A stretch of DNA of 51,577 nucleotides from an uncultured Erysipelotrichaceae bacterium (GTDB lineage Bacteria > Bacillota_I > Bacilli_A > RF39 > UBA660): NCBI GenBank assembly GCA_902795755.1, contig CADBMO010000058.1:1-51577 (forward strand), given 5' to 3'. Within the stretch, counting starts at the first letter, position 1, and every line of letters starts with the position of its first letter. Both the position numbers and the translations under genes were made by a program. Below the pieces are notes generated by a model. It worked only from the letters and a program-made list of their open reading frames with translations. It made no database searches and was not told the DNA's origin. Positions 28,397 through 41,633 of the stretch are shown here, in pieces.

Positions 28397-29767
28397 CTAA
28401 AACTTTATTCTTTCATTTATATAATCAATAACTTCACTAACAGGTAATGTAATTTGTTTCATGGTATCCCTATCTCTAATTGTAACAGTGTTATTATTAA
28501 TTGTTTCATCATCTATTGTTATACACCATGGCGTACCAATTACATCTTGTCTTCTATATCTTTTACCAATTGAGCCAGTTTCATCATATGTACACATAAA
28601 TTCTTTTGAAAGCATATTAAATAATTCTTCTGCTTTATCGGTATGATATTTTTTAACAAGTGGTAATACTGCTACTTTATAAGGTGCAATAGCTGGATGA
28701 AAATGCATAACTTCTCTAGTATCATTTTCTAATGTTTCCTCTTCATATGCTTCGCATAGAAGCGCTAGCGTTAATCTATCTGCACCAATAGAGTATTCAA
28801 TTACATTTGGTATAAACTTCTCGTTAGTTTCTGGATCTTGATAATCCATTTTTTTGCCGGAAAATTCACTATGTCTAGAAAGATCCCAAGTACCACGATG
28901 ATGAATACCATTTAACTCTTCCCAACCTATTGGAAATTTATACTGTATATCACATGCAGCTTTTGCATAGTGTGCTAACTTATCATGATCATGATATCTT
29001 AATTTATCTTTATCTAAACCTAAATCAGTAATAAAATCAAATGCTCTTTTTTTATAATCATTAAAGAAATTCATACTATCTTTTTCGTGACAAAACTTTT
29101 GCAATTCCATTTGTTCAAATTCAATTGTTCTAAATAAAAAGTTACCAGGAGTTATCTCATTTCTAAAACTTTTACCAATTTGTGCTATTGCAAAAGGTAT
29201 TTTAGCTCTTGCTGTTCTTTGTACGTTAAGATAATTAACATATTCACCCTGACAAGTTTCGGGTCTTAAATATACCGCATCTTTTTCAGCTTCTATTGTT
29301 CCTCTTGATGTCTCGAACATAAGTTTAAATTGCCTTATTTCAGACCAATCAAATCCTTTACAATTAGGACAAGTAATGTGATTTTCATCAATATATTTTT
29401 CCATTTCTTCATTTGTCATTGCCTCTGCGGCAACTTCTCCTTTAGAAAAATCTTCAATTAAGTTATCTGCTCTAAATCTTTGTTTACATTTTTTACAATC
29501 CATCTTAGGATCAGAAAATGATCCAACATGGCCAGAAGCTTCCCAAACTCTTGGATTCATTAATATTGCTGCATCTACCCCATATGTTTTTGGATCTTCT
29601 TGAACAAATCTTTTCCACCATGCCTTTTTTACATTATTTTTTAATTCGACTCCAACTGGTCCAAAATCCCAAGTATTTGCAAAACCATCATATATTTCAC
29701 TTCCAGGAAATACAAAACCATATTGTTTACATACGTTTACTATTTTATCCATTGTTACTTTTTCCAC
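28397..29767 (-). CDS. glyQS: glycine--tRNA ligase (alpha2 homodimeric type)
   Basis: GFVFPGSEIYDGFANTWDFGPVG and class II motifs. GTG start at 29767 with GGAGG 8 nt upstream, inside the 3' end of the preceding ORF. Confidence 0.95.
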   Translation of the reverse strand: MEKVTMDKIVNVCKQYGFVFPGSEIYDGFANTWDFGPVGVELKNNVKKAWWKRFVQEDPKTYGVDAAILMNPRVWEASGHVGSFSDPKMDCKKCKQRFRADNLIEDFSKGEVAAEAMTNEEMEKYIDENHITCPNCKGFDWSEIRQFKLMFETSRGTIEAEKDAVYLRPETCQGEYVNYLNVQRTARAKIPFAIAQIGKSFRNEITPGNFLFRTIEFEQMELQKFCHEKDSMNFFNDYKKRAFDFITDLGLDKDKLRYHDHDKLAHYAKAACDIQYKFPIGWEELNGIHHRGTWDLSRHSEFSGKKMDYQDPETNEKFIPNVIEYSIGADRLTLALLCEAYEEETLENDTREVMHFHPAIAPYKVAVLPLVKKYHTDKAEELFNMLSKEFMCTYDETGSIGKRYRRQDVIGTPWCITIDDETINNNTVTIRDRDTMKQITLPVSEVIDYINERIKF

Positions 29768-30521
29768 TTTTAATTCCTCCTTTTAACACAAGTTTATTAC
29801 TATCTTTATGAACCTTGCCATTATGTTCATATACCGCTCTTCCTATGGCACTTTCTACATAAACTGATGGATTTTCAACCATAATGTTTACATTCCCAAT
29901 ATCAATCGAAATATTTCTAATTTTATTTTTAATTTCTTTTTCCATTAATGCTATACAATTACTATTTGAAAGTATTGTTTTTATTGCTTCGTACGAGAAT
30001 AAACTATCATCAATTTTATATGTATCTGATAAAATAAAGAGCACTTTTTTTCCATCATTTACATAATAACTAGTATCATTATTTTTAAATACAAACTCAT
30101 ATTTTTGTTTATTAAATCGTAACATTTTTTCTAAAAATTCGTTTCTAGATAAACAATAATTTGTACCAATTATTTCTAATAATGACTTCTTATTATTTAG
30201 CCCTACTAGATTAAGATTAATTTTTGGACTATCACAAATATCAACATAGTTTTTTTCTAAATACATAACTAAGTTGTTTGCCTTATATGATAATAATCTT
30301 ATATTTTTAGATAATAATATAGATTTTAATAATGCATATGTTTTATCATTAGTTTTATTTAATATATCATCATAATAATCAGCAATGCTAGTGTTTATAT
30401 CATTATTCATAAGCATATATGCGTTTTTAACTCCTATATACTCTTTATTCTTTTTGCCAATTTTTAACGCATCCCACCTTTGGCTTAATAATATCTTGGG
30501 ATCGTTTGTCTCATTAAACAT
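29745..30521 (-). CDS. hypothetical protein (258 aa), first gene of the T-box-controlled operon
   Basis: GAGGTGA RBS. Long open frame in stop-rich AT DNA. Overlaps the glyQS start by 23 nt. No family recognised. Confidence 0.65.
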   Translation of the reverse strand: MFNETNDPKILLSQRWDALKIGKKNKEYIGVKNAYMLMNNDINTSIADYYDDILNKTNDKTYALLKSILLSKNIRLLSYKANNLVMYLEKNYVDICDSPKINLNLVGLNNKKSLLEIIGTNYCLSRNEFLEKMLRFNKQKYEFVFKNNDTSYYVNDGKKVLFILSDTYKIDDSLFSYEAIKTILSNSNCIALMEKEIKNKIRNISIDIGNVNIMVENPSVYVESAIGRAVYEHNGKVHKDSNKLVLKGGIKSGKSNNG

Positions 30522-32506: not shown

Positions 32507-34459
32507 TTAATTATTTGCCTTTTTCTTCTTATTTAAAAGTATTATTTCTATAATAATTATTATTAATAATATAATATTTATACAAATAAGTATCCAAAAA
32601 CTACAGTTACTTTTCTCATTTGAAATATTAACCTTATTTACAAAGTTTTTTGCCTTTGTTGTTTTTATTTTATTAACTGTTGTACTCACTTTACTAGTTT
32701 CTGTATTATTATTCATAATTGATTTAAAAGAAGTTCTAGATGCTTTTACAGTAGTAACTTTTTTAGTAGTACCTCTTTTAATTTCTTGTTTTTTTGTAGT
32801 AGTAGTTGTCGTAGTATTTAATTTTTTCAAATCATCTTTACTAACAGTTATTAAAGGTCTTACACCAGCACGTGTATTTTCCTCTTCAATGTTATAAGCA
32901 TCTACTACATTAGAATTATCAATAACCATTGCTATTGATGTAGCTTCTTCTGGATCTAAAACTAAACCGGCCGTCCAATAATTACCTTTGCTATACCAAC
33001 TAGGTATTTCTAAACCACCAGTATTAATATTAATAAATAAATCTATTATATCTTGGTAATCAAGCAATGTACCTTCAATTGAATTCATGTTTGTATTTTT
33101 CTTTAAATAATTCACATAATTATTAACATACTTATAAACTTCACTATTACTATTATAAACATATCCATATTCAGTAGTATCTCCAAACATTGTAACAGAT
33201 TTTAAATAACTATTATCAAAATTACCGTCACTATCTTGCCAATAATAATATTGTTCACCATTTTTTTTAATAGCAAAATCTACAACACCAACATCTTTTT
33301 GATATTCATCATCAATAAATCCTTTAGCATTACTATTTTGAATTCCATAACCAGGATCTGATTCAGTTATAGGAGTATGTGTATCATCAACATCATCAAA
33401 TATTTCACCAACGTATAAGTTATACTTTGGTAAAAGTTTAACAGTATCATCTTCTTGTTTAATTACATTAAATGATTCTCCTGCCAATTCAACTTTTTGA
33501 CCTTTTACATAATTATCATCATTAAATCCTCTATTATCTGGTATTTGTTCTTTATTAATTTCAATAACAGGTCTTACACCATAGAGAGTATTATTATAAT
33601 AATCATTATAAATCAATTCTGGGTCTGCAATACCAAATTTAGCGGTTGAAGGCCTTAAAACACCTCCTTGGCTACCTTCTTTTACAGATAATGCGTAACC
33701 AAGCCAATAAGATGAGTTTCTTAAAAAGCTAAAATCTTTATCAAGGTTAGCTTTTTGCTTTCCGCCACCTTCTATATAATTAGCAAATGCTTCATTAGAT
33801 ACATCTACACCTTGATTCAAATAAAATAAATCATTATAATTAATTAATCTTATATTAAAATCGAATCCCATTTCATTTAATCTATCTTTATAATTATCAA
33901 CATATTTACTGAATATTGCATTAGAATCATATATGTAAGAGATATGTTGTGTTGATGTACCACTTACAAAAGATACTTCTTCTTTATAACCATTTTTTAC
34001 CACATAATTTTGTTCATCCCAATAATAAATTCCAACTTTATCATCTAAAAATCCAACTACACCAACATACTCATCACTATCCTCAACATAGCCTTTTGCC
34101 TCTTCACTTTGAAGGCCATAACCATCTGTACTTTCTAAGATTTCTGTTAATGAATTATCATTTGCGTTATAAACGTTACCAACAAGCAAATTATATTTTG
34201 AAAGTGCAACCACACTATCTCCTTTATCCCTAATTGTTATAAAACATTCAGTATTTAAGCAAAATTCATCACCAATGTCATAATTATTAGAAACGTTTCC
34301 TTTAAGCTTAATAATATCTAATTTATATGCTCCTACTATTAATAACGCTATTATTATAACAGTACATATTATACACATTATAATACTGGTCTTTTTCAAT
34401 TTTGTATCTGCAAGCTTAGGTCTCCCCACACTTCTTTTTTTATTTGTTTTGTCCTTCAT
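32507..34459 (-). CDS. VGRPKLAD-motif surface protein (paralog B) with duplicated ectodomain, Thr-rich linker and C-terminal TM anchor
   Basis: Start at the ATG at 34459. MKDKTNKKRSVGRPKLADTKLKKTSIIMCIICTVIIIALLIVG. Two tandem modules of about 230 aa, each ending in GVRP(V/L)I. TTTTTTT linker. C-terminal WILICINIILLIIIIIEIILL-NKKKK. Confidence 0.8.
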   Translation of the reverse strand: MKDKTNKKRSVGRPKLADTKLKKTSIIMCIICTVIIIALLIVGAYKLDIIKLKGNVSNNYDIGDEFCLNTECFITIRDKGDSVVALSKYNLLVGNVYNANDNSLTEILESTDGYGLQSEEAKGYVEDSDEYVGVVGFLDDKVGIYYWDEQNYVVKNGYKEEVSFVSGTSTQHISYIYDSNAIFSKYVDNYKDRLNEMGFDFNIRLINYNDLFYLNQGVDVSNEAFANYIEGGGKQKANLDKDFSFLRNSSYWLGYALSVKEGSQGGVLRPSTAKFGIADPELIYNDYYNNTLYGVRPVIEINKEQIPDNRGFNDDNYVKGQKVELAGESFNVIKQEDDTVKLLPKYNLYVGEIFDDVDDTHTPITESDPGYGIQNSNAKGFIDDEYQKDVGVVDFAIKKNGEQYYYWQDSDGNFDNSYLKSVTMFGDTTEYGYVYNSNSEVYKYVNNYVNYLKKNTNMNSIEGTLLDYQDIIDLFININTGGLEIPSWYSKGNYWTAGLVLDPEEATSIAMVIDNSNVVDAYNIEEENTRAGVRPLITVSKDDLKKLNTTTTTTTKKQEIKRGTTKKVTTVKASRTSFKSIMNNNTETSKVSTTVNKIKTTKAKNFVNKVNISNEKSNCSFWILICINIILLIIIIIEIILLNKKKKANN

Positions 34460-34558
34460 ATCTTCACATCCTATCATTATATATGATACATCAAAACTCA
34501 ATTTTTAGTCAACAAACTCATCTATATAATTGTAAAAAAAATGTAAAAAAAAAGCAGA

Positions 34559-38829: not shown

Positions 38830-39030
38830 TTATGAATTTCTCTCACGTTTAGCAGCTTTTCTTGCATTCTTTTTAGCAGCTTCACGTTTTACCTTTCTTT
38901 CTACCCCAGGTTTTATATATTCTTTTTTTCTTTTTACTTCTCCAAGGAGACCGCTTTTTGCCACTTTATTCTTAAATCTTTTAAGTGCGGCATCAACACC
39001 ATTACCTTTTACTGGAACTGTGATAGGCAT
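38830..39030 (-). CDS. rpsU: 30S ribosomal protein S21
   Basis: Start at the ATG at 39030 after GGGAAGGGGGG. MPITVPVKGNGVDAALKRFKNKV... basic C-terminus. Confidence 0.93.
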   Translation of the reverse strand: MPITVPVKGNGVDAALKRFKNKVAKSGLLGEVKRKKEYIKPGVERKVKREAAKKNARKAAKRERNS

Positions 39031-39063
39031 ATTTATCCCCCCTTCCCTGGTCATTTCTTAGAT

Positions 39064-39093
39064 ATTATAACATAAAGAATAAATATATTTCAA
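39064..39093 (-). promoter_or_regulatory. sigma-A promoter for rpsU
   Basis: Minus strand TTGAAA (39093-39088), 18-nt spacer ending in TG-n, TATAAT (39069-39064). Confidence 0.55.
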
Positions 39094-39141: not shown

Positions 39142-39309
39142 TTATTTTAAAGGGCATTTACCTTTATAAATCCATCTTCTAATTGAACTACCAAAATATC
39201 TTCCAACATCCATAAAAGTATTGATTCCTCTCATAATACTATTAAGTAATGTTGCAGAAAGTGTTTTACCTGCTTTTATTTTTTTTAAATCTTTTTTGCT
39301 TAATATCAT
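39142..39309 (-). CDS. double-glycine-type (Ala-Gly) leader peptide 2, cationic bacteriocin-like precursor (55 aa), not in the ORF track
   Basis: AGGAGG RBS 5 nt before the ATG at 39309. MILSKKDLKKIKAG|KTLSATLLNSIMRGINTFMDVGRYFGSSIRRWIYKGKCPLK. Leader has L-12, D-8, L-7, I-4, A-2, G-1. Confidence 0.7.
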   Translation of the reverse strand: MILSKKDLKKIKAGKTLSATLLNSIMRGINTFMDVGRYFGSSIRRWIYKGKCPLK

Positions 39310-39318
39310 GCATTCCTC

Positions 39319-39459
39319 CTATCTACATTTAAATGGTCTAAAATAACCATCTAACACACCAATAAGAAACGTTATACCAGCAGCTATTCCAGCAGCTATC
39401 CAACCACCAGATGCTCCAGCTTTTACAATTTTTTGTTCATTTTTGTTTAGTTCTTTCAT
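39319..39459 (-). CDS. double-glycine-type (Ala-Gly) leader peptide 1, GxxxG-rich hydrophobic bacteriocin-like precursor (46 aa), not in the ORF track
   Basis: The ATG at 39459 overlaps the ABC-transporter TGA (ATGA), with GGAGG upstream. MKELNKNEQKIVKAG|ASGGWIAAGIAAGITFLIGVLDGYFRPFKCR. Leader has L-12, E-8, V-4, A-2, G-1. Confidence 0.7.
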   Translation of the reverse strand: MKELNKNEQKIVKAGASGGWIAAGIAAGITFLIGVLDGYFRPFKCR

Positions 39460-41462
39460 TTTACCTCCATTTCTTTTAGTATTCCTTTTTCTATTTTTAA
39501 TACTTTATCAAACAACTCCTTATTAGTACAATTATGAGAAATTAATATAAGTCCTAAATGTTTATAATTCTTTTTTATATTAATAAGTATTTGTTTTTCA
39601 GTTTCTTTATCAAGTTGACTAGTTGTTTCATCTAATATTAGTATATTACTACAATTACATAATGCTTGAGCGATAAGTATTTTTTGAATATCACCACCAG
39701 ATAAATTATCATTTATACTATCAATCTTATAATCATAACCAATATTATTATTTTTAAGCATTTTATCTATTAATGTTGTTTTAGCGGCTAATTCATAATT
39801 ATTACTATCAAGACAAATATTATTTTTAATAGTATCTGAAAACAATTTAGATTTTTGGTCCACATAAGTTATATTGTTCTTTATATCTTTATATAATACA
39901 CTATTTATATTATTATCATTAAAATATATATTTGCTTTTTTAGTTGAGATTTGTTTTGTAAGTATTTTAAATAATGTGGATTTACCAGATCCTGTTGGTC
40001 CAGTAACCATTATCCAATCTGAGTTTTTTATATTTAAATTTAATTTTTTTAAGATTAACTTATTATTATACTTAAAACTATAATTTTTTATTTTAATTCT
40101 ATATATTTTAAAGTTTGTTTCATCAAATCGGATGCTTTCATATTTAAAAAGTTCATTTATTCTTTTAATACTTGCATCATAATCTGGTTTTGTGCCATAT
40201 AAACTATATATCTCATTTAAAGAACCCATAAACATATTTGATAAAAATACTATAAAAACTAAATTATTTATGTTAATTTTCATAATTAAAGAACATATTA
40301 TTATACTAATATCAAATATAATATTTAAAATTCCAATAATCATTTCTCTTTTTAAATAATGTTTATATAAAGAATTATATATATTATGTAGCTTATTATA
40401 CTTTTCATTAATTTTAGATATAAAAAAACGTTCTTTAACATAGTTTTTTATTAATAATATATTGTTTAAGCAAGAAATAATTGTATCACTTAGTCCTTCA
40501 TTTTTTAACTGCAAATCATAATTTATATAACTATATTTCTTATAATAAGATTTATTTATAATAAAAGTTAAAATTGAAAATACAGCTAATAGAATTATTA
40601 AAAACGGTTCAAAAACCAAAAAAACTATAATTATACAAATGATTAATATAATATTTACAAAAAATATTTCAGTAATCTTACTAACCATTTCTTTTACATA
40701 AGATAAATCATTTATTTTTGATATTAACTCTCCAGATGGATGTGCTTGATAAAATTTACTGGGAAGTAATAAAGTTTTGGCAAATACGGGTACACTTAAC
40801 TTCTTATCTACTAATAATCTAAAGGATAATGTTAATTTGTTTCTTAAATAAAAAATCAATTCTTTTAGGATTCCAATGAATAAAAAAATAAGTAGTATAT
40901 AGTAAATAAAGGAGTAATTTAATTTTAAACTTAATGAATTAATTATGAATGAAATATTATATGAATATAAAATTGATAAGAATGACCATAGTAATGTTAC
41001 CATTGTTATCTTAATCATTTTTTTATTATTATAAGCATTTTTAATGTCAAACTCTTCATTTCTTTTAAACGTTATTCCCACTCCGGTAAATTCTTTTAAA
41101 AAATTGTCTTTTGGTACGTTTTTTATTCCAAATGAAGGATCTGCAATAAGTATGCTATCATTTGATACTTTGTATACCACAACAAAATGTTGAAGATTGT
41201 TTTCATTAACTGTATGTGCGATAAATGGTGTTTTAACTTCATTAATATTTATGCCTTTATAAGCTTGAGCGTCTAAAAGATGTTTTTTACTTTCTTTTAT
41301 AATTTCATATGCGCTAACACCTTCCATATCACATTTCATTTCCTTTTTTATTAATTCATAACTAGCATTTATATTGTGGTACTTAAATATCATAGAAAGA
41401 CATGCTATCCCGCAATCATTAGTATTAAGTTGTTTTGTGAACTTATATTGCAAATCTATCAC
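39456..41462 (-). CDS. bacteriocin-type ABC exporter with N-terminal C39 peptidase domain
   Basis: C39 catalytic Cys context QLNTNDCGIACLSMIF, six-TM domain, Walker A GPTGSGKST, signature LSGGDIQK, Walker B ILILDETTS. The likely true start is the TTG at 41453 (GGAGG, 8-nt spacer); the GTG at 41462 overlaps the RBS. Confidence 0.9.
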   Translation of the reverse strand: MIDLQYKFTKQLNTNDCGIACLSMIFKYHNINASYELIKKEMKCDMEGVSAYEIIKESKKHLLDAQAYKGININEVKTPFIAHTVNENNLQHFVVVYKVSNDSILIADPSFGIKNVPKDNFLKEFTGVGITFKRNEEFDIKNAYNNKKMIKITMVTLLWSFLSILYSYNISFIINSLSLKLNYSFIYYILLIFLFIGILKELIFYLRNKLTLSFRLLVDKKLSVPVFAKTLLLPSKFYQAHPSGELISKINDLSYVKEMVSKITEIFFVNIILIICIIIVFLVFEPFLIILLAVFSILTFIINKSYYKKYSYINYDLQLKNEGLSDTIISCLNNILLIKNYVKERFFISKINEKYNKLHNIYNSLYKHYLKREMIIGILNIIFDISIIICSLIMKININNLVFIVFLSNMFMGSLNEIYSLYGTKPDYDASIKRINELFKYESIRFDETNFKIYRIKIKNYSFKYNNKLILKKLNLNIKNSDWIMVTGPTGSGKSTLFKILTKQISTKKANIYFNDNNINSVLYKDIKNNITYVDQKSKLFSDTIKNNICLDSNNYELAAKTTLIDKMLKNNNIGYDYKIDSINDNLSGGDIQKILIAQALCNCSNILILDETTSQLDKETEKQILINIKKNYKHLGLILISHNCTNKELFDKVLKIEKGILKEMEVK

Positions 41463-41514
41463 CTCCCGATTTTATTGTTCAACAAAACTTTTAAAATCCC
41501 TCGTTTTTTTTGAA

Positions 41515-41546
41515 AAAAAATTAAAAAAACACGCATAAACGTGTTT
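41515..41546 (-). terminator. rho-independent terminator after tRNA-Arg
   Basis: Minus strand AAACACG-TTTATG-CGTGTTT followed by TTTTAATTTTTTTT. Confidence 0.65.
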
Positions 41547-41556
41547 ATAATCCAAG

Positions 41557-41633
<77 letters not shown>

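Follow-up and report, generated by a model that had tools for sequence, protein, structure and literature searches.

We analysed a 51,577-nucleotide (nt) stretch of DNA, here called the window, from contig CADBMO010000058.1 of an uncultured Erysipelotrichaceae bacterium. Between positions 39142 and 41462 its minus strand carries three co-directional open reading frames (ORFs), an exporter gene followed by an ORF of 46 amino acids (aa) and then by one of 55 aa, in very AT-rich DNA with a G+C content of ~22–26%. An initial annotation, made from the letters of the sequence, had read these ORFs as an ATP-binding cassette (ABC) exporter with a C39 peptidase domain and two small precursors resembling the complementary halves of a class IIb two-peptide bacteriocin. 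Here we describe the exporter, the two peptides and their relatives, and we weigh this reading against other explanations.

The exporter and its two linked peptide genes

The mechanical ORF list starts the exporter at a GTG (39456..41462, minus strand, 668 aa). A TTG at 41453 is the likelier start because GGAGGTG lies six bases 5′ of it; the resulting protein of 665 aa (39456..41453, minus strand) has the length given for the same gene in public gene calls. Pfam recognizes, in order, Peptidase_C39 (E 1.3e-33), ABC_membrane and ABC_tran, and the peptidase domain (PF03412) occupies 41055..41447 on the minus strand, which is residues 6–136 of the 668-aa ORF. The exporter aligns over its full length with PCAT1 (4RY2; E 6.8e-58, residues 3–659), its motifs KQLNTNDCG, QHFVV and ADP falling on the catalytic Gln, Cys, His and Asp of PCAT1, and it aligns end to end with ComA (E ~1e-51). 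The C39 catalytic motifs are kept in all 22 related exporters that were aligned, and the translation holds a Walker A motif (GPTGSGKST), a signature motif (LSGGD), a Walker B motif (ILILDE) and the H-loop His. The combination of an N-terminal C39 domain with ABC transmembrane and nucleotide-binding domain motifs is that of a PCAT/AMS-type peptidase-containing ABC exporter, and the C39 exporter proposed by the initial annotation is borne out by both the domain matches and the alignments. The best NCBIfam matches are bacteriocin cleavage/export transporters, all scoring under their equivalog cut-offs; the exporter is thus of the PCAT/AMS kind and belongs to no named subfamily. At one related locus, seen in one metagenome sample (L025, 1826–3840), the exporter is split into pieces of 194 and 379 aa in which no C39 domain was detected. 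The split could reflect a pseudogene or a misassembly, and the peptides downstream of it are intact.

Peptide 1 is encoded at 39319..39459 on the minus strand, and its ATG overlaps the TGA of the exporter as ATGA (39456–39459). Its 46-aa precursor consists of a 15-aa leader, MKELNKNEQKIVKAG (39415–39459, minus strand), and a 31-aa hydrophobic glycine-zipper core, ASGGWIAAGIAAGITFLIGVLDGYFRPFKCR. Peptide 2 begins 9 nt beyond peptide 1 (39142..39309, minus strand), and its 55-aa precursor joins a 14-aa leader, MILSKKDLKKIKAG (39268–39309, minus strand), to a 41-aa cationic amphipathic core with the motif GRYFGSSIRR, KTLSATLLNSIMRGINTFMDVGRYFGSSIRRWIYKGKCPLK. A ribosome-binding site, AGGAGG (39315–39320, minus strand), lies 5 nt 5′ of the peptide-2 ATG and overlaps the stop codon of peptide 1. 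The arrangement reported in the initial annotation, with the ATGA overlap, the separate AGGAGG and the strand common to all three genes, was found exactly as described.

Both small ORFs are genuine conserved genes under purifying selection. A word-indexed search returned 34 homologues of peptide 1, nearly all of 45–47 aa, and 7 of peptide 2; a full profile scan, covering 1.84 billion representatives with a limit of E 0.001, raised the latter to 310 cluster representatives, nearly all of 50–57 aa and matching end to end. Pairwise ratios of nonsynonymous to synonymous substitution rates (dN/dS, or omega) were 0.04–0.30 for both genes, at values of dS near 1 and so near saturation. Identical peptide genes are present in at least six independent metagenome samples or assemblies. 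The initial annotation had called the locus unannotated, which holds for its function, because neither ORF carries any name, but not for the calls, since the gene sets of public metagenome assemblies include both ORFs.

We compared 28 distinct related loci. Scanning species-representative genomes with a peptide-1 profile gave 13 loci, and scanning metagenomes with a peptide-2 profile gave 15. The 13 genome loci all come from gut metagenome-assembled genomes labelled Bacilli, Mollicutes, “Clostridium sp.” and similar, and in every one of them a peptide-2 homologue lies immediately downstream of peptide 1. In the metagenome loci, a peptide-1 homologue lies just 5′ of peptide 2 wherever the upstream sequence suffices. 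Taken over all related loci with enough sequence, the two peptides are adjacent in 26 out of 26, and an exporter is found upstream in 23 out of 23, either directly or separated only by an accessory gene of ~140 aa. Order and copy number, one of each, are kept across lineages in which the peptides are only 35–50% identical. The two peptide families are obligate partners. One relative (P0149, 101 aa) contains a peptide-1-like unit, a second leader and a peptide-2-like unit in a single ORF, through either a natural fusion or the loss of a stop codon.

The accessory gene belongs to the subtype-B loci, where it encodes an extra single-pass membrane protein of 138–151 aa between the exporter and peptide 1 (for example L011 5585–6001, L015 5570–6004, L047 2749–3204 and L052 2773–3207). 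This protein weakly matches NF045999, the MAG1140 family (best E 4.1e-6).

Leaders and predicted mature peptides

Leader profiles were built from 35 peptide-1 and 104 peptide-2 relatives. The profiles of the two families are alike, with the consensus L(−12), E(−8), L(−7), I/V(−4), G(−2), G(−1). A hydrophobic residue occupies −12 in 97–100% and −4 in 100% of relatives, −7 is Leu or Met in relatives, and Glu stands at −8 in 34/35 peptide-1 and 79/104 peptide-2 sequences. Both families match the pattern by which C39 domains recognize their substrates, L(−12)xxxE(−8)L(−7)xxI/V(−4)xGG (PMC6363468), so that the double-glycine-type leader claimed for each peptide in the initial annotation is upheld at the level of the whole family. 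Gly at −1 is invariant in both. At −2, Gly predominates (21/35 peptide-1 and 98/104 peptide-2 relatives) and Ala makes up the remainder (14/35 and 6/104); the Ala found in the window and its near relatives is the minority variant. The usual cleavage-site variants are named as Gly-Gly, Gly-Ala and Gly-Ser (PMC6363468), and the statement in the initial annotation that an Ala-Gly variant is known could not be confirmed.

From the leader alignment, cleavage of both peptides is predicted to occur after K-A-G. We also considered cleavage of peptide 1 after ASGG, and rejected it because that GG is not conserved and because cleavage there would throw the recognition residues at −4, −7, −8 and −12 out of register. 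A comparison of C39 residues co-varying with Ala or Gly at −2 yielded one discriminating column only, confounded by phylogeny, and was dropped.

The predicted core of peptide 1 has 31 aa, a net charge of +2 and an isoelectric point (pI) of 9.3, and contains GIAAG and GVLDG. That of peptide 2 has 41 aa, a net charge of +7 and a pI of 10.6, contains GRYFG, and is amphipathic, with a maximum helical hydrophobic moment of 0.70 over core residues 16–33. Recomputation thus gave the same lengths, charges, GxxxG-type motifs and amphipathic character that the initial annotation had listed. AlphaFold predicts a single helix for peptide 1 (residues 6–44; mean predicted local distance difference test score, pLDDT, 79) and a helix for peptide 2 (residues 5–50; pLDDT 66).

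Among the 34 homologues of peptide 1, G15, A27, G28, F31, G34, D37 and G38 are invariant and C45 nearly so. In the 17 closer relatives of peptide 2, G36, R37, G40, R44, R45 and C52 are invariant; in the alignment of 104 sequences, G14, G40 and C52 remain so and G36, R44 and R45 are kept in ≥90%. Each family therefore keeps a GxxxG motif of its own, G34/G38 in peptide 1 and G36/G40 in peptide 2 (the latter invariant in the 17 closer relatives). In 32/35 peptide-1 and 90/104 peptide-2 relatives there is a single Cys, located near the C-terminus.

The window peptides have no meaningful Pfam or NCBIfam match, and peptide 1 does not match TIGR03949 (lactobin A/cerein 7B; cut-off 21.5 bits) at E up to 10. 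Relatives with Gly-Gly leaders do match TIGR03949, as well as TIGR01847 and PF10439, and NCBI and JGI label some of them “lactobin A/cerein 7B class IIb bacteriocin”. One such peptide-1 relative scores 28.2 bits against the 21.5-bit cut-off of TIGR03949, and matches disappear entirely when the leader is removed; the likeness thus lies in the leader and the glycine-rich start and not in a shared core. Profile searches of the Protein Data Bank (PDB) with both families gave only non-significant, leader-level matches, to the CtA leader and to precarnobacteriocin B2. The mature cores appear new to curated families, solved structures and the searched literature, and the family to which they would belong is widespread and uncharacterised. 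The initial annotation had recognized neither sequence as a described bacteriocin, and these searches bear it out.

The third gene, the upstream motif and the chromosomal setting

In 14 of the 28 related loci, a third ORF of 48–59 aa overlaps the 3′ end of peptide 2 (examples are L007 4236–4385, L014 6308–6457, L027 4147–4299 and L015 6298–6471). The protein is leaderless, with a basic N-terminus, one hydrophobic or transmembrane helix containing a conserved Pro, and the motif GRI(I/V)GT(I/L)IR. It is under purifying selection (omega 0.23–0.50) and has 64 homologous clusters, all unnamed. By its position and size, which are typical of class IIb, the third gene is likely an immunity gene. Peptide 2 and the third protein have homologous C-terminal halves (hhalign probability 92%, E 5.9e-7, 27 columns), and the homologous columns include the GxxxG and the Cys position; this homology suggests that the third protein could be a membrane-anchored decoy of peptide 2. 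The ribosome-binding site of the third gene is apparently formed by the “IGG” codons of peptide 2. Orphan copies would be a signature of immunity genes; three contexts were examined for orphan third genes, and all were complete loci.

Upstream of the exporter in the window lies a bipartite motif, GAGGGATTT-N10-GTTGAACAA (41475–41502), that agrees with 13 of the 15 specified positions of the sigma-H consensus and represents a degenerate copy. Its −35-like element, GAGGGATTT (41494..41502, minus strand), is kept in position and sequence in loci L020 and L022. The −10-like element, GTTGAACAA (41475..41483, minus strand), follows after 10 nt and ends 21 nt before the start codon. The corresponding motif of the subtype-B loci, AAAGGAAAT-N11-RNNGAATGA, matches the sigma-H consensus, RNAGGAWWW / RNNGAATWW (PMC8510167). 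A sigma-H score of at least 13 was reached in 12 of 21 loci compared with 11.9% of 90-nt windows drawn at random from these loci. Given the high AT content, this score by itself is weak evidence; the constant position carries more weight, as the motif matches at this site in 15 of the 21 loci and ends 17–25 nt, mostly 21 nt, before the start codon. Homologous sites were seen in L011–L019, L020, L022, L024 and L026. A scan for a sigma-70-type site between the exporter start and the terminator of the upstream tRNA gene (41527–41546) returned no candidate. The exporter operon may be under sigma-H-like control; sigma-H drives transition-state and sporulation genes (PMC8510167).

The exporter is directly preceded by a tRNA-Arg(TCT) gene (41557–41633) with its own promoter-like site and a terminator-like hairpin (41527..41546, minus strand; an 8-bp stem with 3 G-C pairs, then a T-run) that sets the operon’s upstream limit. 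Apart from this tRNA gene, Rfam matches nothing in the whole window, and the locus holds no other known RNA element; a tRNA-Arg gene occupies the same place in locus L008. The downstream boundary is set by a sigma-70-type promoter of rpsU (39064..39093, minus strand; TTGAAA-18-TATAAT with an extended TG, 11/12 matches). No terminator was detected between the peptide-2 stop codon and rpsU, so transcripts may run into rpsU, which also has this strong promoter of its own.

In the window (38830–39093), and in most lineages among the related loci, the peptides lie directly 5′ of rpsU, the gene for ribosomal protein S21. An S21 gene is within ~350 nt in 15/28 related loci and within 3.1 kb in 20/28. 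The upstream neighbor varies: it is tRNA-Arg with GerM in the window, RsmD in the subtype-B loci and a YegS-like kinase in others. The peptides are present in every contig that has the identical S21 protein and sufficient sequence upstream, and a search of plasmid and phage collections with peptide 2 found no match. The other genes within ~10 kb are of housekeeping or sporulation type (tRNA-Arg, GerM, S21, YqfC/D, Era, RecO, RuvX and YfhO), and no histidine kinase, response regulator, modification enzyme or CAAX-type protease occurs within ~10 kb on either side. Histidine kinases and response regulators, which mark ComC/BlpC-type pheromone loci, are absent from the locus in the window and from the gene tables of loci L001–L052.

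Among these housekeeping genes, two minus-strand ORFs of 664 aa (32507–34501) and 258 aa (29745–30521) have no Pfam match at E up to 1e-5. In two relatives that lack the third gene (L024 4253–7255 and L026 4245–4991), weak matches to Sigma70_r2 and Sigma70_r4 lie between peptide 2 and rpsU; these inserted genes could encode a dedicated regulator.

A probable class IIb-like pair and other explanations

We consider it somewhat better than even (probability about 0.55) that the three-gene operon is a member of an uncharacterised family of class IIb-like, two-peptide, unmodified bacteriocins with PCAT-type export. Two precursors would be made with double-glycine-type leaders of 15 and 14 residues. 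The C39 domain would dock the leader helix via L(−12), E(−8), L/Q(−7) and V/I(−4) and cleave after G(−1), here K-A-G, and the transporter would expel the cores, a 31-residue hydrophobic glycine-zipper helix and a 41-residue cationic amphipathic helix. Outside the cell, the helices would pair via GVLDG and GRYFG, perhaps also through their single C-terminal cysteines, and the pair would act on the membrane of related bacteria.

The system resembles class IIb bacteriocins (lactococcin G, plantaricin EF/JK, lactacin F, ABP-118 and brochocin C) in having two different, adjacent genes for helical peptides of 30–40 residues in one operon, here on the same strand and 9 nt apart. The peptides have double-glycine leaders and a dedicated C39 ABC exporter, with cleavage itself predicted, and their cores lie within the 25–60 residues of the cationic, amphiphilic or hydrophobic GxxxG helices of the class, the helices here being predicted. 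There are no modification enzymes, the operon consisting of the exporter and the two peptides only, and relatives of the window hold a small membrane protein directly after the second peptide. Unlike class IIb, the cores have no detectable similarity to curated families or solved peptides, the window has no immunity gene, Ala rather than Gly stands at −2, each peptide has one conserved Cys near its C-terminus, and the locus has an apparently vertical chromosomal place beside rpsU. With respect to lactobin A/cerein 7B, peptide-1 relatives with Gly-Gly leaders exceed the TIGR03949 cut-off, whereas peptide 1 of the window is unmatched. The idea of class IIb halves put forward in the initial annotation is therefore supported by the pairing, leaders, exporter, GxxxG motifs, charge and predicted helices, but not by the window’s lack of an immunity gene; because of this lack, and because activity and synergy are putative, we speak of class IIb-like peptides and not of established members of the class.

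Several points weigh against a bacteriocin. Antimicrobial activity is putative for every member of the family. The mature cores of relatives, taken alone, match no curated family, so that the family matches depend on the leader. The canonical cleavage-site variants of PMC6363468 do not include Ala at −2. A full-text literature search with six core fragments matched no paper, the supplementary tables of the IIBacFinder paper being outside its reach. An immunity gene is normal in class IIb operons, and none stands beside the peptide genes of the window: a hidden Markov model (HMM) and motif scan of the whole 51.6 kb found no third gene, the gap of 87 nt between peptide 2 and rpsU is too short for one, and none was found in the nearest relatives (L020–L026). 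In the window, either immunity is encoded elsewhere, or it is unneeded, or the peptides are harmless to their producer. Finally, the locus looks vertically inherited beside rpsU and fixed within the species, a pattern unusual for bacteriocin loci.

This vertical, fixed pattern is the main reason why we continue to give some weight to a non-antagonistic role, in which the exported peptides would target the producing cell or its kin, serving as a signal tied to stationary phase or sporulation or as a membrane or matrix component. We consider such a role unlikely, yet it would account for the conserved place beside rpsU, for the fixation seen in all contigs with identical S21, for low omega values that speak of conservation and not diversification, for the lack of an immunity gene in half of the loci, the window included, and for a sigma-H-like motif at a fixed position. 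Non-antibiotic double-glycine peptides, among them pheromones and biofilm factors, are documented (PMC4997328, PMC7595303). What such a role leaves unexplained is the obligate pairing of two different GxxxG helices, which is a class IIb signature, and the immunity-like third gene in the other half of the loci; the locus and its surroundings hold neither a histidine kinase nor a response regulator nor any other receptor gene, and typical double-glycine pheromones are shorter and less hydrophobic than these cores of 31 and 41 aa. Obligate pairing likewise makes it improbable that the peptides are independent one-peptide (class IId) bacteriocins with a common exporter and not complementary halves. 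Several unrelated double-glycine precursors are common at exporter-linked loci, but independent bacteriocins would be expected to shuffle between loci, whereas here the two families are always found as a pair, in one fixed order and as single copies, at 35–50% identity; P0149 fuses both in a single ORF, and each family keeps one GxxxG and one Cys.

The absence of the third gene from the window’s clade, the split exporter of L025 and the lack of a clear sigma-70 promoter 5′ of the exporter would also fit a decaying remnant, whose peptides, after loss of the third gene, are unproduced or non-functional. This we regard as very improbable. The three ORFs are intact and have good ribosome-binding sites, no catalytic or ATPase motif of the exporter is lost, omega between the window and its third-gene-less relatives is 0.04–0.19, and identical peptide genes recur in the independent metagenome samples mentioned above.

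The class IIb-like pair that we favor could be combined with the remaining features into a single, more speculative picture, which as a whole we consider doubtful. The one Cys per peptide may form an intermolecular disulfide that joins the two helices covalently. Where self-protection is present, the third protein, leaderless, anchored in the membrane and derived from peptide 2, would act as a decoy that occupies the partner site of peptide 1, and the window’s clade would have dispensed with it. Expression would be timed by sigma-H to the stationary-phase or sporulation transition, and the vertically inherited trait would serve kin discrimination or cannibalism-like killing and not be a mobile weapon.

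Other systems offer partial parallels. PCAT1 of Clostridium thermocellum, whose substrate is CtA, and ComA of Streptococcus, which exports ComC, are like the window exporter single polypeptides with C39, transmembrane and nucleotide-binding domains; like PCAT1, the window exporter has no accessory protein, and the leader of the peptide-2 family weakly resembles the CtA leader (7S5J_B, E 0.43). Unlike PCAT1 and ComA, to which its similarity amounts to only ~200 bits, the window exporter has a peptide pair as its cargo. The pheromone ComC is detected by a two-component system encoded next to it, and unlike ComC the window peptides have no such system at their locus. The third-best NCBIfam match of the exporter is NF045998 (E 8.4e-63, below the cut-off), which describes the Mbov_0121-type transporter of Mycoplasma, and the ~140-aa accessory protein of the subtype-B relatives resembles the MAG1140 family (NF045999), weakly and below the cut-off; the window has no accessory gene. 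Together, the NF045998-like exporter and the NF045999-like accessory protein hint at a system shared with Mollicutes. A literature search for Mbov_0121 and MAG1140 found no published function for the mycoplasma system.

Taken alone, the finding in the window is an ordinary genome-mining result. A study of gut genomes reports 4,186 unique double-glycine precursors, so that thousands of such peptides are already predicted (PMC12648112). If the peptides are active, they would be the first way into a large family of paired peptides, so far unstudied, that counts 310 cluster representatives on the peptide-2 side alone. Its hosts are uncultured Firmicutes with very AT-rich DNA, found in gut samples of humans, rabbits and sheep, and the peptides would be candidates for narrow-spectrum antimicrobials that target organisms still beyond cultivation. 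The single Cys in each peptide, the immunity-like protein derived from peptide 2, the sigma-H-like promoter and the linkage to rpsU could extend what is known of how two-peptide systems assemble and how their producers protect themselves.

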